10,853 nt of DNA from IMG/VR virus record IMGVR_UViG_2695420478_000001, one strand, 5' to 3'. This document shows, in pieces, positions 306 through 10,802 of this stretch. Source of the stretch: a virus (lineage: Duplodnaviria; Heunggongvirae; Uroviricota; Caudoviricetes). Within the stretch, counting starts at the first letter, position 1; each line of letters begins with the position of its first letter. A program made the position numbers and the translations under genes. Under the pieces are notes generated by a model. The model had not been told where the DNA came from. It was given only the letters and a program-made list of their open reading frames with translations, and searched no databases.

Positions 306-461
306 TTACTTCTCAGATTCGTAGTCTACGAAGACAGCGACCTCCGTCTGGCCGGTTCGGATTCGTACCTCGCAGAAGTCTTTCCTCGTTACCAGTGCTA
401 TCACTACGACGGTAATACAGATGACGATCAGGGCGATTAACATCGCCTTTTGCTGCTTCAT
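306..461 (-). CDS. Hok/Gef-family type I toxin, 51 aa, HokD/RelF-like (MKQQKAMLIALIVICITVVVIALVTRKDFCEVRIRTGQTEVAVFVDYESEK)
   Basis: Manual translation of the minus strand from the ATG at 461 to the TAA at 308..306. GGAG ribosome-binding site upstream. N-terminal transmembrane helix plus the conserved RK.LCE..R....EVA motif typical of Hok/Gef toxins (recalled family features). Below the 60-aa cutoff of the ORF track. Confidence 0.85.
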   Translation of the reverse strand: MKQQKAMLIALIVICITVVVIALVTRKDFCEVRIRTGQTEVAVFVDYESEK

Positions 462-636
462 AGCCTACTTCTCCTTGCCTTTCGGCACGTAAGAGGCTAA
501 CCTAAGTTTGTAAGTCATAGATTTGGCCTCAGATTAATGTTAAGCGTCCTGCAAGACGCGTAATGTTAACTGGGGCTTTTCTCTGTCTGCCTTACGGCTG
601 CATGCCCGAGGCAGACAGCCTCAAGCACCCGCAGCT

Positions 637-2677: not shown

Positions 2678-3355
2678 TCAGTAGCGATGCAGTGAAGGCG
2701 GCAACTCTTTGTTCTTAAGCCTTACCCATGCGGAAAGGTTCGTTGGTCCGTCTGGCTCATTAATATCAACATCTCGTGTGTGGTTGATTAAAACATCTCT
2801 CGCCATTCCGATAACATACGAAAACTCATGACCGTAGTCGTAGCATCTGCCGGAATAGTTCGATTGAATTTGTTTTAGCGCCGGATACAGTTCGCGGAAT
2901 AATGCCTGTGAGCGGTTAGCATAATCCCATAACCATACAAGGCTGTTTGCTTCTTTTGCGGAAAGCTCGTTGGTGCTCTTCTCTTGTTTGCCAGTATTTT
3001 TCTTGCACTGGCTGAAATAGCAGTCTTCCAGTTTTTCGAACACATCCCACGCCTGATCGGTTTCGAGCATTTTGGCGTGACGGGCTGCTCCGCGTTCTGT
3101 CCAGAGGATGAGGGAGCGGGCATTTTTACCAACTAACCCGATTGTTTCGGGTCTGTTCTTAAACTCGCGTAATTCGTTTTTTTCAATTTTAAAGTAATGC
3201 TTTCCGGGCATGAATCGCGTCGTGTTGTTCAGAAAGTTATCAGAAATGTTTTTGATTTTTGTTCCGTAAAGGTGAGCCAACAGTTCAGTAGTAATTACGG
3301 GGATCTGGTTATAGGTAACAGGGGAAAGGTTTTCGACAGAAATTTGAACAGCCAT
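2678..3355 (-). CDS. Roi-like DNA-binding protein with N-terminal ORF6N domain, 225 aa
   Basis: ...[23 protein letters not shown]...[17 protein letters not shown]...[33 protein letters not shown] matches the ORF6N pattern found in HK022 Roi-type proteins (recalled). GAGG ribosome-binding site 5 nt upstream of the ATG at 3355. Confidence 0.7.
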
Positions 3356-3518
3356 AATGACCTCGCGTTTCGATAATTTTTACCTCGCCACCGTCAGGTG
3401 CTAATCATCGTGGTGGCGAACTGTGCGGGGTTAGCACTACCGGTCGAAACATCCGGCGAGCCTTTCGGCTCCCCCACACAGCCCGCCATAAATCGCGAAT
3501 GTGACTGTGCTTAGCGCA

Positions 3519-3541
3519 TAAAAAAACCGCCAGCGCGGTTA
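3519..3541 (-). terminator. Intrinsic terminator in the nin intergenic gap (stem aaccgc/gcggtt, loop gctg, 7-T run on the minus strand)
   Basis: Minus-strand transcript reads ...aaccgcgctggcggtttttttatgc. Lies in a 275-bp stretch with no ORF of 60 aa or more. Confidence 0.5.
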
Positions 3542-3630
3542 TGCACCGTTTCGATATCCGGGGTGCTAATCCCGACGCCAGATTTTGCTGGCGCGTGAGG
3601 AATATAGCCCCGAATAAATCATCGCGTCAA

Positions 3631-7679: not shown

Positions 7680-7898
7680 TTAGGCGGCTTTGTTACTGGA
7701 TGGAGGGAAAACATCATCCAAAGAACATTGGCACCCTAACTTCCTGAGGCCTTCTACGATCTTTCGGCAATCGTTAAGTCTAGGAGTACGGATATTCAGC
7801 TCATAGTTGGCGATGCGGGATTGCCCCCAACCAATTGCCGAAGCCAGTACAGCTTGCGAAACTCCGATTTTTTTTCGCTGCTGGGCAATTTTGTTCAT
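7680..7898 (-). CDS. cro: Cro-like helix-turn-helix (XRE-type) repressor, about 72 aa
   Basis: Helix-turn-helix motif GVSQAVLASAIGWGQSRIANYE. First gene leftward of the operator region and divergent from cI. GGGAG ribosome-binding site 7 nt upstream of the ATG at 7898. Confidence 0.7.
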   Translation of the reverse strand: MNKIAQQRKKIGVSQAVLASAIGWGQSRIANYELNIRTPRLNDCRKIVEGLRKLGCQCSLDDVFPPSSNKAA

Positions 7899-8006
7899 TG
7901 CGGTCTCCCTAGTATTAATCACACACCCATTACACACAATTTGTGATTAACAGTCAACCTCAATTCGTGTACAGAGTTCAATCACGTTGCGTGTTACATT
8001 TAAAGG
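7899..8006. promoter_or_regulatory. Right operator/promoter region (OR with divergent PR and PRM): three candidate operators of the form AATCACA-N3-TGTG (near 7915-7931, 7936-7952 and 7979-7995). PR -35 TTGACT (7952-7957, minus). PRM -10 TTACAT (7994-7999, plus).
   Basis: Intergenic region between divergent cro and cI. Dyad motifs read directly and are shared with the OL region. The PRM -10 sits so that transcription would start at or next to the cI ATG (leaderless, as for lambda cI). Confidence 0.6.
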
Positions 8007-8654
8007 ATGAAAACGATGCATGAAATTATCGGGGAAAGGATCAAGTCCCTTAGAGAAGCTAAAGGACTTAGCCAGGCTCAATTGGCCAAGCTTTGCGGCT
8101 GGGCTGCGCCTTCACGCCTGGGGAACTACGAGTTAGGAACAAGAAAGGTTAGCGCGGATGACGCGCTGGTTCTTGGGGCGGCACTCGGCGTATCTCCGGC
8201 AAAAATAATGTTTGGCGAGGATTCAGACGCTGTATTTCGCCAATATGAGTACCCGTTATTTTCTTCAGTGCAGGCCGGGCCGTTTTCGGAGGTTGGAAGC
8301 TACACAGCAAGCGATGCAAAGGCATGGGTCCCAACGACCACAAAAGCCAGCGAAAAAGCTTTCTGGCTTGAGGTGAAAGGCCATTCTATGACTGCGCCAC
8401 AGGGCGTAAGGCCGAGTTTTCCTGAGGGTATGCTGATACTCGTTGATCCGGCCGAGCCGGTAGAGTCTGGGGATTTCTGCGTGGCTTCTGCAAATGGTGA
8501 TTCAGAGGCAACGTTCAAGAAGTATGAGAAGGATGCAGGGGTTAGTTACTTGGTTCCATTGAATCCGGCATACAGAACCCTGGACTGCGATCACACATGC
8601 CGCATCATAGGCAAGGTAGTTAAGGCTCAGTGGCCTGAAGAGACGTTTGGATGA
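8007..8654 (+). CDS. cI: CI prophage repressor (N-terminal helix-turn-helix, C-terminal LexA/S24-type autocleavage domain), 212-215 aa
   Basis: Helix-turn-helix motif [23 protein letters not shown]-terminal domain with Ser (KGHSM) and Lys (FKKY) catalytic-dyad context. Divergent from cro. The start may be the second ATG at 8016. Confidence 0.9.
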
Positions 8655-8704
8655 TGGATGGTCGCAGAGATGCTCGTAGAGCATACAGCGATGCAGGAGA
8701 ATTT

Positions 8705-9139
8705 ATGGCACTTAATTTAGAAAGAATATCTTTTATAACCCCATTTGATAGCAGCGAAGAACCCAACCAACCGACGCTTAATTTTACATGCAATGAATTT
8801 CCTGCGCGGCTATCGATTGATTTCAGGGTTGGTATGATCGGGTTGAAACCAAATTCAAGATATAATTTGGGTATTATGGTAATCCCCGCGCACCTAATTA
8901 TAAAAAAAGGTGAGGAAATTCAATTCCCTGACGGCTCTTCGGAATCAGTTTCACTTTTCATCGATACGAAAGATAGCCATTTTGAAACAGGGGTTGGCGG
9001 ACAGGTAATAGTAACATTGAAAGAAATTAGGGTCCCAGCTAAAGGGCTGTATAGTGTTATAGGGATATTGCAAGATAATGAAGACCCTAAAAATGAACTT
9101 CATAAAAATGAATCATTTTTCACCGTAGAGCTATTATGA
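8705..9139 (+). CDS. Hypothetical small soluble protein (144 aa), first gene of the cI-linked AT-rich cargo cassette
   Basis: ATG at 8705 with an AGGAG ribosome-binding site 6 nt upstream. Same strand as cI. No recognisable motif. AT-rich composition. Confidence 0.6.
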   Translation: MALNLERISFITPFDSSEEPNQPTLNFTCNEFPARLSIDFRVGMIGLKPNSRYNLGIMVIPAHLIIKKGEEIQFPDGSSESVSLFIDTKDSHFETGVGGQVIVTLKEIRVPAKGLYSVIGILQDNEDPKNELHKNESFFTVELL

Positions 9140-9756
9140 GTGACGACAGTAATTTAAATAATCATGGAAAGCAAGACACCAACATATCTGAAAGCCGGAG
9201 GTTGAAGGTTGTTGGCGGTTCCGATTTTGAGGCTGAATTTGATAATTCTCCCACCAAGGTGCAAAATAATTACATAAAACCGCCACAAACGGAGGAAGAA
9301 GTGGGAACGATCAGCAGAGAGGAACTTGATGCTCGCTTAGCTGCTAATAAAGCAGAGATGGAGTCTATTGCTTCTTCCATTAGGACTGACATGGCTCTAT
9401 CTCGTGAAAGCGTTAATGTCCAATTTGCATCACTTAATGCAGCCATAAGCTCTCTATCGTCCAAGATCGATGGAAAGATGGATAGCGCTGCTGGCGATAT
9501 AAAAGCAATTAATGGGAGATTCGAAGGAATTCAAGGACAAATAACAGGGGTTAATACCGCAATTAGTGGTGTTCAGTCGGGTATTTCTATACGATTAGCC
9601 ATTTTTAGTGTCATTATCGCTGTAATAGTTGCGATTCCCGGGCTGGTATCAGCTTTAAAGTCAGACCACGCACCTTTGCAACAGCCTTCCACTTTGCAAG
9701 CGCCGCCACAAAATACCCAGCCAACAGACAACAAAAAAATCACTCCCCAGCATTAA
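9136..9756 (+). CDS. Hypothetical tail-anchored membrane protein (206 aa): polar N-terminus, predicted coiled-coil, single C-terminal transmembrane helix, Pro/Gln-rich tail
   Basis: ATG overlaps the upstream stop (ATGA at 9136-9139). Hydrophobic segment IRLAIFSVIIAVIVAIPGLVSAL near the C-terminus. Followed by a strong terminator. Confidence 0.7.
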   Translation: MSDDSNLNNHGKQDTNISESRRLKVVGGSDFEAEFDNSPTKVQNNYIKPPQTEEEVGTISREELDARLAANKAEMESIASSIRTDMALSRESVNVQFASLNAAISSLSSKIDGKMDSAAGDIKAINGRFEGIQGQITGVNTAISGVQSGISIRLAIFSVIIAVIVAIPGLVSALKSDHAPLQQPSTLQAPPQNTQPTDNKKITPQH

Positions 9757-9764
9757 CGCATTAA

Positions 9765-9788
9765 CCCGGCCTCAGCGCCGGGTTTTTT
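9765..9788 (+). terminator. Intrinsic terminator ending the cI cargo operon (stem cccggc/gccggg, 6-T run)
   Basis: acccggcctcagcgccgggttttttgtt, a GC-rich hairpin followed by a T-run 9 nt after the stop codon. Confidence 0.8.
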
Positions 9789-10026
9789 GTTGCCTGCACA
9801 TAACTATCAGGACAGCACCTGCCAGCCAGCCCAAGCCTCTGATTAAATTACTATAATTCTTAATACAACTCCCATATCCCGCCATCTCGTCACCACCTAC
9901 TTCGCTCGTTTTTCGAACTTTTCAGCACACCATCCTGCTGTTTCCCCCGCCTTAAGTAAGCAAACCCATCGCGGGGAAAACTATTTACACAAAAAAATCA
10001 TACACATAACGTGTCACACCCTTATT

Positions 10027-10073
10027 TTACACATTTTGTGATTGACCATTAAATCACAATATGTGACTATTAT
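10027..10073 (+). promoter_or_regulatory. Left operator/promoter (OL/PL): -35 TTGACC (10042-10047), 17-nt spacer, -10 GACTAT (10065-10070). Operators at about 10027-10043 and 10052-10068.
   Basis: Same AATCACA-N3-TGTG dyads as in OR. Positioned upstream of nutL and N. Confidence 0.5.
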
Positions 10074-10117
10074 TTCCATCAGCAGGACGCTGGTAGCCAA
10101 ACGGAAAAGATTGGCAG

Positions 10118-10164
10118 GCTCTTTAAACAACGTCGAACACTCGACTACGTGGCTGAAAAGCCAG
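10118..10164 (+). promoter_or_regulatory. nutL-like site: boxA-like GCTCTTTAAACAA (10118-10130), small hairpin GTCGA-ACAC-TCGAC, boxB-like hairpin TGGCT-GAAA-AGCCA (about 10150-10163)
   Basis: Read directly. Lies between PL and the N start. Architecture repeated at nutR. Confidence 0.55.
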
Positions 10165-10261
10165 ATCACCCAACCACATAAGCTGTGGGATGCAATGCCG
10201 AAGCAACCGTCTCAGGAGGAGCTTCGAGATTGCATCGCCAAAGTTTATTCGGGAGGAATCT

Positions 10262-10534
10262 ATGTCCAGAAAAACAGAATTTAAAGGCACCGCAGCTTCT
10301 CGCCGTAGAGCTCGTCGCGCAAACCTGCAAAGTCAGGAGTCGATTAGCTCCGACAAGCTACACAGGCCAACCCCTTCACGAGTGGTCTTGCAATGCAAGC
10401 GCAAACCAGCAATGAGAGCAGAAGTTATAACTCTGACAACGTTGACCAGAAAATATGAAGGTTCAACTTGTCTTCCAAACGTAGCCATTTACGCTGCAGG
10501 CTACCGTAAATCCAAACAACTGACAGCAAGATGA
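10262..10534 (+). CDS. N: N-type transcription antiterminator (P22 gene 24-like) with an arginine-rich motif, 90 aa
   Basis: Start MSRKTEF... with a GGAGG ribosome-binding site (gggaggaatctATG). Arginine-rich motif GTAASRRRARRANLQ. C-terminus ...LPNVAIYAAGYRKSKQLTAR resembles the P22 gp24 C-terminus as recalled. Confidence 0.8.
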   Translation: MSRKTEFKGTAASRRRARRANLQSQESISSDKLHRPTPSRVVLQCKRKPAMRAEVITLTTLTRKYEGSTCLPNVAIYAAGYRKSKQLTAR

Positions 10535-10595
10535 CTTGTGTTGGTCGCCAGAAAATGAAATTAGGCAGCAAACCACTTATTTGAGAGGAATTAAT

Positions 10596-10802
10596 ATGTC
10601 ATCAATCCGCTTAACTACGAGAATGAAAGAGGAAATCGCTCGTAACGCTTTAATTAAGTCCGGGGTGTTCACTGAACTTGAAGAAGTAACAAAGTTAAAG
10701 AACCAGCTTGCACTTGACGCCAGAGTTATTGCGTTTGGCGGGAAAAAGAAAACTGAACCGCCCCGGGAATCCTGGAGACTAAACTTCCTGAGAAAGAGGT
10801 AA
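10596..10802 (+). pseudogene. Early-left hypothetical gene (68-aa reading frame) disrupted by an IS insertion: codons from about 10754 onward are IS-derived
   Basis: Good ribosome-binding site (gagaggaattaatATG). The last 16 codons (TEPPRESWRLNFLRKR) are encoded by the IS left end that begins TGAACCGCCCCGGG at 10754. Confidence 0.5.

Follow-up and report, generated by a model that had tools for sequence, protein, structure and literature searches.

In the 10,853-nucleotide (nt) stretch of IMG/VR virus record IMGVR_UViG_2695420478_000001 (hereafter the window), which was identified as the early region of a lambdoid Escherichia coli prophage, two small overlapping genes, here called A and B, directly follow the gene for the cI-type repressor. 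Our comparative analysis showed that this A-B cassette is a mobile accessory module ("moron") that circulates among temperate phages of enterobacteria, lambdoid phages included. It pairs a cytoplasmic protein with a predicted immunoglobulin (Ig)-like fold with a predicted tail-anchored coiled-coil protein of the inner membrane. In the reading that we favour, and to which we assign a probability of roughly 45%, the cassette would be a prophage-encoded anti-phage module at the inner membrane, in which B may act as a pore-forming effector and A as a sensor or regulator, the outcome being abortive infection.

The initial annotation of this DNA had presented the pair as an undescribed candidate exclusion or abortive-infection module. 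The genes themselves turned out to be on record, both in phages HK244 and HK542 and in the families phrog_5893 (A) and phrog_5820 (B), whereas a function was assigned to them nowhere that we found. It is thus the function, and not the genes, that is undescribed. The cassette DNA (1.1 kb) was 99.4% identical to that of HK542 and HK244, with protein identities of 100% for A and 98.5% for B. In these phages the two open reading frames (ORFs), which were deposited in 2007 (GenBank EF120457, EF120458 and JQ086373) and are both annotated as hypothetical proteins, replace rexAB after a lambda-immunity cI gene and before the terminator Timm. Degnan et al. 2007 is said to be the source of these immunity-region records, which reportedly come from wild phages with lambda immunity. 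Searches of Pfam (above threshold), NCBIfam, PADLOC-DB v2.0.0 and, with sequences and profiles, the PDB gave nothing significant for A or B.

The A-B cassette lies in the rexA-rexB slot

The immunity region around the cassette contains the following elements.

7919–7951, unstranded: operator-like element on the right-operator (OR) side with the palindromic core ACACAATTTGTGATT, located between the divergent cro-like gene and cI
7919–7951 with a copy at 10014–10046, unstranded: 33-nt operator-like direct repeat, 79% identity, with inverted-repeat cores
8007–8654, plus strand: cI-type repressor of 215 amino acids (aa), with a helix-turn-helix (HTH) and an S24 autopeptidase domain (Pfam Peptidase_S24, E = 3.9e-26; HTH_31/HTH_3)
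8694–8698, plus strand: Shine-Dalgarno sequence AGGAG of gene A, 6 nt 5′ of the ATG at 8705
8705–9139, plus strand: gene A, 144 aa, phrog_5893
9136–9756, plus strand: gene B, 206 aa, phrog_5820
9763–9790, plus strand: intrinsic terminator (the Timm equivalent) with an 8-bp stem (9763–9784), six G-C pairs and a T-run
10014–10065, unstranded: operator-like elements on the side of the left operator and left promoter (OL/PL), consisting of the repeat of the OR element and a 14-nt inverted repeat (10030–10043 and 10052–10065)
10262–10534, plus strand: N antiterminator, the first gene of the PL operon (Pfam N_peptide, E = 1.2e-31)

The layout of the OR-side element corresponds to that of the annotated OR and promoter for repressor maintenance (PRM) of HK542 and lambda, and the PRM region that would drive transcription of cI, A and B would be located at this element (7919–7951). 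The repressor itself corresponds to the 215-aa "LexA family protein" of RefSeq (WP_001299796), with about 94% identity at the DNA level. At the other end, the OL/PL-side elements form the far edge of the immunity region, and the start of N at 10262 is backed by the RefSeq annotation of N in a related prophage. Since the operator-like repeats bracket cI, A and B, with N lying beyond, the cassette sits exactly in the slot between cI and OL/PL that rexA and rexB occupy in lambda, which is where the initial annotation had placed it.

Within the cassette, the AGGAG sequence of gene A is kept in HK542 and in E. coli WCHEC040047. The TGA stop codon of A and the ATG start codon of B overlap in ATGA (9136–9139), and translation of the two genes is predicted to be coupled on the basis of this overlap. 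The terminator behind B, the equivalent of which is annotated as Timm in HK542, folded at −20.2 kcal/mol (z = −3.07). Coordinates and fold were hence in agreement with the original description of two same-strand genes after cI that overlap in ATGA and end at a strong terminator. No terminator-like or promoter-like sites were detected in the interval between cI and A. The only promoter-like site, within B (9239–9267), was discounted, as 4.6 such sites were expected by chance. Taken together, the sequence of the cassette is consistent with its co-transcription with cI.

A low G+C content of "27–45%" had also been put forward. Indeed, there is a real dip in G+C, with 37.7% for A, 43.2% for B and 41.0% for both genes together, as compared to 51.9% for cI, 52.8% for P and 48.3% for the window. 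However, the earlier range was overdone in view of these exact values, and the contrast with gene O (47.4%) is small.

The cassette is a mobile module with exchangeable surroundings

High identity (98.8% or more) to HK542 and to E. coli WCHEC040047 was confined to window positions 8627–9799, a segment that begins with the final 28 nt of cI and ends about 15 nt beyond the terminator; the cI genes of the three sequences differ. The ends of the exchanged module and the loci that inform on its exchange are as follows.

8627–8654, plus strand: boundary sequence TCAGTGGCCTGAAGAGACGTTTGGATGA, encoding the cI end QWPEETFG*, the left recombination joint
9791–9799, plus strand: right end of the exchanged module, where identity ends at 9799 (HK542, WCHEC040047) or 9795 (IMG/VR loci)
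L041 3131–3519, also L025–L031 and L033–L036: DUF3024 insert
L020 2604–4012 (E. coli FJ_Ec_21) and L019 2578–3417 (E. coli O157:H7 ATCC 35150): alternative cargo behind the same cI allele

The left joint, TCAGTGGCCTGAAGAGACGTTTGGnTGA, is the end of a lambda-type cI gene; lambda has it as well and then diverges into rexA. Of the 22 cassette loci checked, 21 had the joint core 5′ of gene A and one (L035) had a one-base variant of it. Among 20 IMG/VR loci with a cassette of at least 96% identity, we distinguished six types of upstream repressor that were only 19–71% identical to each other. Furthermore, 12 loci contained a gene for a 113-aa DUF3024 protein (PF11225, E = 2.4e-31) between the repressor gene and A. 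This gene had a copy or a degenerate remnant of the joint on each side, even behind repressors with an unrelated C-terminus. The flanking joint copies imply that cargo may be stackable as well as swappable, and they suggest that stacking occurs by recombination at the short joint of ∼27 nt.

The reciprocal situation was encountered too, as the cI allele of the window was followed by other genes elsewhere. In O157:H7 ATCC 35150, it precedes another pair of 93 and 183 aa without a family match, and sieB is found in this locus just past the first gene after PL. In FJ_Ec_21, the same allele precedes genes for a DUF6932 protein and a 310-aa protein, which together match the PADLOC candidate system PDC-M63. 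The finding of one cassette behind at least six repressor types, and of one cI allele with different cargo, bears out the initial proposal of a horizontally acquired moron.

Among 5426 complete E. coli genomes, 51 had the cassette, as one copy in each and always on the chromosome, while contigs with the exact sequence numbered 619 for B and at least 1000 for A. None of the 5426 genomes contained the window's combination of cI, A-B and N (7700–10560) at a coverage of at least 80%, although its parts are each common.

Gene B encodes a predicted tail-anchored coiled-coil protein

B matched phrog_5820 with an E-value of 3.4e-76 over positions 1–199 of the 200-position profile. For column statistics we used an alignment with 23 homologues (A2), next to a wider alignment (A5). 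Four regions were recognised.

9136–9297, plus strand: B residues 1–54, polar and fast-evolving, with the short strand-like motif RLKVVGGSDF
9298–9594, plus strand: B residues 55–153, conserved core, the motif "SREELDAxLAANKAE..IAS..R.EMA" followed by a/d heptads with conserved Gly
9595–9657, plus strand: B residues 154–174, single transmembrane (TM) helix with a hydropathy maximum of 2.71 over 19 residues
9658–9753, plus strand: B residues 175–206, Pro/Gln-rich tail, predicted periplasmic, with the "QPIIIQVP" motif of relatives at columns 184–190 of alignment A2

The core starts with the near-invariant motif "SREELxAxLAANKAE..IAS..R.EMA" (23 homologues), the near-invariant residues of which were also seen in alignment A5. 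Hydrophobic, Ile-rich a/d positions then continue unbroken from residue 97 to 150 and lead directly into the TM helix. Gly is invariant or near-invariant at positions 113, 120, 127, 131, 138, 145 and 149, and Gly134 is present in 19 of the 23 homologues. Immediately preceded by R/K153, the TM helix displays a face of small residues in a small-xxx-small pattern (G/S158, A162, A166 and G169), which is glycine-zipper-like (GxxxAxxxA). The N-terminal region, on the other hand, is variable in alignment A2, with analogous short motifs in distant partners. In four out of five comparisons, the N-terminus and the tail evolved faster than the core, with nonsynonymous divergence (dN) values of 0.26–0.75 for the N-terminus versus 0.14–0.29 for the core. 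The tail carries the motif "QPIIIQVP" in most relatives, which has degenerated to "QPSTLQAP" in the B protein of the window, and several family members lack the tail (1–7 residues). This loss and degeneration indicate that conservation in the B family is centred on the TM helix and the coiled coil in the cytoplasm.

The AlphaFold2 model of B comprised two helices (residues 61–142 and 150–174) at low confidence (predicted local distance difference test, pLDDT, of 59). One hydrophobic helix at 154–174, a polar N-terminus and R/K153 fit a tail anchor, the orientation being predicted. B is accordingly classified, from its sequence features, as a predicted single-pass, tail-anchored coiled-coil protein of the inner membrane. 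Hydropathy, alignment and model together reproduce the layout that had been noticed at the outset, namely a variable polar N-terminus, heptads, one C-terminal hydrophobic helix and a Pro/Gln-rich tail.

Two family assignments of B were rejected. The match to Baculo_PEP_C (PF04513) reached 19.1 bits (E = 1.4e-3) versus a Pfam gathering threshold of 38 bits; this label is precomputed on some B homologues, and the likeness is compositional and of the coiled-coil type. For a ClyA-type alpha-pore-forming toxin, the NCBIfam scores of 14–15 bits compare to cut-offs of 320–360. Weak, non-significant matches of B were also obtained with alpha-pore-forming toxins, in the heads that insert into the membrane (SmhB, E = 0.014; MakE, 0.007; MakA, 0.015). 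The SmhB value stems from a PDB profile match, and the matches are a hint only.

Gene A encodes a predicted Ig-like beta-sandwich protein

An alternative start of gene A at 8651, as used in RefSeq, would give a protein of 162 aa and an ATG that overlaps the cI stop codon. However, all homologues of A, distant ones included, start at the equivalent of 8705, and we prefer this start because the N-terminus that it defines is conserved in distant homologues. A matched phrog_5893 (E = 2.1e-50) over profile positions 1–136 of 140. The family is small: a search with its profile against 1.84 billion representative proteins returned just 23 hits, about 15 of which were near full-length with 136–153 aa, and the full-length relatives reach down to about 22% identity. 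The predicted structure is a two-sheet sandwich of 7–9 strands with confident structural matches to Ig-like folds. A is thus, by a confident fold prediction, a cytoplasmic Ig-like beta-sandwich protein. No DNA-binding domain of the HTH, ribbon-helix-helix or AbrB type was matched in Pfam.

The A-family profile also matched repeat segments of giant proteins of 2700–4200 aa (P0041, P0053 and P0055), with 22 stretches in one of them. By these matches, the fold of A may share ancestry with repeat domains, perhaps those of surface proteins.

The pair is conserved in Enterobacterales and its upstream partner is interchangeable

The homologues of B were grouped in 65 clusters, none of which carries a curated functional name. 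The named sources all belong to the Enterobacterales: Escherichia, Klebsiella, Enterobacter, Citrobacter, Cedecea, Leclercia, Serratia, Yersinia, Salmonella, Pantoea, Morganella, Providencia, Xenorhabdus and Pectobacterium. In relatives at 55–80% protein identity, synonymous divergence (dS) was saturated while dN was 0.12–0.65, which argues for purifying selection on A and B.

Linkage of the two genes was retained over long evolutionary distances. The A relatives P0042, P0047, P0050 and P0052 (28–40% identity) are each followed by an overlapping gene for a protein of 159–195 aa, and a Phytobacter relative (63% identity) likewise has an overlapping downstream partner gene. A distant Salmonella relative (22%) is followed after a 4-nt gap by a 200-aa B partner. 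In all partners of these A relatives, the B motif is conserved, a coiled coil is present and a hydrophobic helix lies at the C-terminus, and the distant partners also match the PHROG family profiles. At each of the eight loci where the A-B junction was measured, the genes either overlapped, by 4 or 8 nt, or were separated by no more than 8 nt. Moreover, the distant pairs are located directly downstream of an HTH-type repressor, usually with an S24 domain, wherever the contig reaches far enough. The combination of a soluble and a tail-anchored membrane protein, as recognised in the initial annotation, is therefore a property of the family that is kept down to 22–30% identity.

The expected company of cI-like repressors was found as well: with the B profile, 43 full IMG/VR loci were retrieved, and in 40 of these a repressor-like ORF lies upstream on the same strand. 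An A-like gene directly precedes B in 31 of the 43 loci. Seven of the remaining B genes were inspected, and each one had a tightly linked small upstream gene of another kind, encoding either a protein of the 92–101-aa classes or a 112-aa Zn-ribbon protein, which has two CxxC pairs. Examples are L052 3482–3820, L057 3486–3776, L058 3397–3693, L015 4695–4988 and L016 4683–4982. The alternative partners that were scanned showed no Pfam, PHROG or PADLOC match. The B proteins without an A-like neighbour have different and longer N-terminal regions. In this family, a conserved membrane core thus goes together with a variable N-terminus and with upstream partners that are interchangeable. A related arrangement is present in Salmonella phage epsilon34, with the order repressor gp46, A-like gp45, a 103-aa coiled-coil and TM protein gp44, OL/PL and N.

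L021 2959–3727: epsilon34 gp45 and gp44, in the same slot between repressor and OL/PL

A candidate anti-phage module at the inner membrane

In the mechanism that we propose, the pair would be read from the repressor transcript, starting at PRM or the promoter for repressor establishment (PRE), and would be made in lysogens. B would be the conserved effector at the inner membrane. On activation, its coiled coil would gather several TM helices, to which the Gly-rich amphipathic segment 118–150 might be added, and the bundle could form a viroporin-like or type-I-toxin-like pore. Collapse of the membrane potential would then abort the infection. A would serve as the sensor or regulator, a role that the interchangeable upstream partner would fill in other family members. 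Conceivably, A docks on the variable N-terminal region of B, where it would either keep B inactive or recruit a phage trigger.

An anti-phage function is proposed mainly because of the position of the cassette, since the documented occupants of this slot, RexAB and BstA, are exclusion systems. It is also proposed because the candidate defence pair PDC-M63 occurs behind the same cI allele. In addition, conflict systems typically combine a conserved effector with an exchangeable partner, which favours the same interpretation.

Several considerations weigh against it. Reasoning from genomic position is a prior-probability argument only, one TM helix offers little from which to make a channel, and, with a pLDDT of 59 for the model of B, the pore idea has to be built from sequence pattern and the non-significant matches to toxin heads. 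PADLOC-DB v2.0.0 yielded no family for A or B at E-values up to 1, both proteins are absent from the DefensePredictor supplementary tables, and a literature search retrieved no paper on their accessions or function. Neither did family libraries reveal an enzymatic or nucleic-acid-binding domain in A or B. Lastly, an A-like gene of 23% identity with an overlapping gene for a 108-aa tail-anchored coiled-coil partner is located in a myovirus baseplate/tail module, with no adjacent repressor.

L011 5001–5751, also L012 and L013: A-like pair in the baseplate module

The Tai tail-assembly-interference system was considered for this tail-module pair and dismissed: Tai consists of single genes, the word "transmembrane" does not occur in the paper, and no link was found.

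A more far-reaching proposal extends the pore-forming role to the whole family. Here, phrog_5820 would be the common effector of a modular, repressor-linked defence family of the Enterobacterales, with swappable sensors (the Ig-like sandwich, the ∼92–101-aa class and the Zn-ribbon protein) acting on its N-terminus, and with integron-like shuffling at the 27-nt boundary. We put this forward tentatively and regard it as rather doubtful.

The main rival to abortive infection is a non-abortive superinfection exclusion, which we consider unlikely. In this case B, with A tethered to it, would block genome injection at the inner membrane in a way that resembles P22 SieA, HK97 gp15 or T4 Imm, the cell would survive and no pore would be formed. 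The predicted location of B in the inner membrane and its expression from the prophage, as judged by position, suit such a blocking role. SieA is likewise a prophage inner-membrane protein, and it is sufficient for exclusion (PMC10883804). The strand-like periplasmic "QPIIIQVP" of close relatives could touch an injection component, but the tail bearing it is missing in several members and degenerate in the window. Insertion of a distant A-like pair in a tail module would fit an entry block too, presumably at a position comparable to that of the HK97 gp15 moron. However, an interchangeable cytoplasmic partner looks more like part of a sensor-effector system than like part of a passive block, and Pfam revealed no homology to the SieA, SieB, Imm or gp15 families.

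Alternatively, the pair might be a lysogenic-conversion factor without a role in defence that exploits a highly expressed slot, for instance in envelope stress, colonisation, or colicin or serum resistance. Prophage-expressed morons with non-defence functions do exist, lambda bor and lom being examples, and the absence of any defence-family match would agree with this, as would the frequent occurrence of the cassette in E. coli of clinical and animal origin (51 complete genomes, with the exact B sequence on 619 contigs). We nevertheless judge it improbable, as the characterised occupants of the repressor-OL slot documented here all have phage-exclusion functions, partner swapping and fast evolution are typical of conflict systems, and neither A nor B has a signal peptide, adhesin or enzyme feature.

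That the cassette is a toxin-antitoxin-like addiction module, with a membrane toxin B neutralised by A, or a modulator of the lysis-lysogeny switch, so that it would stabilise the prophage or tune its induction, seems distinctly improbable. Its coupled genes, the small soluble protein first and the membrane protein second, do follow an order that resembles type II toxin-antitoxin operons, and the window already contains a membrane-toxin addiction locus, hok/sok. For switch modulation there is a parallel in RexA, which modulates the lambda switch independently of RexB (PMC11077077). Yet A appears as a stable beta-sandwich without a DNA-binding domain and not as a labile antitoxin, and the operon lacks a separate promoter and relies on transcription from that of the repressor. 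The addiction idea moreover overlaps with abortive infection, since many toxin-antitoxin systems act in that manner. A type II toxin-antitoxin operon in the strict sense was rejected, because A lacks a DNA-binding domain and there is no promoter-like site upstream of it.

Finally, the low G+C content and the "hypothetical protein" annotation throughout might be taken as signs of chance ORFs or decaying genes that fill a recombination-prone spacer, but this is refuted by the conservation data, namely homologues down to 22% identity in a conserved gene order, a confident fold for A, saturated dS with low dN, and a conserved start-stop overlap.

Other genes and RNAs in the window

The remaining features of the window lie mostly on the opposite strand.

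Minus strand: hok-family toxin, Q antiterminator, ninH, ninG, two antirepressor-like genes, Dam-type methyltransferase and ninB
Minus strand, further: Lar-like gene, 96-aa ORF at the ren position, P, O, cII and the cro-like gene

An Rfam scan of the window identified sok, C4 and isrK RNAs, while the Rfam and tRNA scans gave no match inside the A-B cassette. The hok/gef-family toxin ORF (306–461, minus strand; PF01848, E = 7e-22) and the sok antisense RNA (456–630; 118 bits in Rfam) form a type I toxin-antitoxin locus (306–630, minus strand) at the edge of the prophage late region. The C4 antisense RNA with its a1/b1 targets and isrK (3409–3607, minus strand) are located upstream of an ORF6N/P22_AR_C antirepressor-like gene (2678–3355, minus strand), next to which lies a KilAC/Rha antirepressor-like gene (1881–2609). 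By these matches, C4, isrK and the antirepressor-like genes are recognisable as an antirepressor control unit of the P1 immI type that is inserted into the nin region. Behind N, a 68-aa ORF (10596–10802, plus strand) matched Nmad5 (nucleotide modification associated) at only positions 1–55 of the 206-position profile, and it may be a truncated gene.

Comparison with known systems

RexAB, the mechanism of which is still not understood, is the classic occupant of the cI-OL interval. If the A-B pair excludes phages, it would represent a second, much simpler soluble-plus-membrane system in the same slot, and as a defence system it would be a repressor-linked exclusion pair without homology to any characterised member. 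HK542, an isolated phage that carries the pair, is genetically tractable, and the natural partner-swap variants could reveal how a sensor is coupled to a single-helix membrane effector. As the cassette is present in about 1% of the complete E. coli genomes and in many more drafts, it could affect the host range of therapeutic and typing phages. The stacking of DUF3024 and A-B at the boundary sequence, in turn, provides a concrete case of cargo exchange at a hotspot.

The closest relatives are the ORFs of HK244 and HK542, which are the same genes in the same position and with the same terminator, the difference being their lambda-immunity cI versus the 215-aa repressor of the window.

Lambda RexAB, an abortive-infection system that acts in lysogens against T4 rII and other phages by depolarising the membrane, shares with A-B the location after cI on the repressor transcript and before the immunity terminator and OL, the composition of two genes for one soluble and one membrane protein, and the boundary sequence at the cI junction. 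The proteins, however, are different, in agreement with the initial impression that neither A nor B resembles RexA or RexB. RexB is a four-TM protein of 144 aa, whereas B has 206 aa and one hydrophobic helix only, as a single-pass anchor behind a long coiled coil; the hhalign probability for RexB and the B-family profile was 0.1%. RexA has 279 aa and is a DNA-binding protein (PMC11077077), whereas A is a predicted Ig-like sandwich of 144 aa, and the A-family profile gave a probability of 0.3% with RexA (E = 0.22). In addition, the A and B genes overlap, while rexA and rexB of lambda are separate.

BstA of Salmonella prophage BTP1 and its relatives acts by abortive infection and is encoded directly after the prophage repressor, with which its gene presumably shares a promoter (PMC8585504). 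The authors of that study, citing Degnan et al. 2007, regard the cI-N interval as a hotspot of mosaic diversity (PMC8585504). Unlike A-B, BstA consists of one cytoplasmic protein, which localises where phage DNA is being replicated (PMC8585504), and it has no membrane component. We detected no homology of BstA to A or B.

The candidate system PDC-M63 shares the slot, the cI allele (in FJ_Ec_21) and the flanking boundary motif with A-B; its proteins are unrelated, and it is itself a candidate system only. In prophage P1 of Pseudomonas putida, the RexAB-type pair PP_5643-5644 consists of repressor-linked soluble and membrane proteins that defend the lysogen (PMC12894663). This pair is two genes further from its repressor than the A-B-type slot. 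Gp30/gp31 of mycobacteriophages Butters and Sbash likewise defend lysogens, again as a soluble and a membrane protein whose genes are linked to the repressor. The membrane partners in P. putida, Butters and Sbash are multi-pass proteins modelled as rings. B differs from these in its one TM helix, anchored by a coiled coil, and none of them was matched in any search.

B is reminiscent of class I viroporins, such as influenza M2, and of type I toxins, such as Hok and TisB, which also have one TM helix with a face of small residues and may serve as a model of how B would depolarise the membrane. Single-pass pore formers of this kind require oligomerisation for ion conduction. The likeness is one of analogy and not of homology, and to the single helix B adds a cytoplasmic domain of ∼150 residues and a protein partner.

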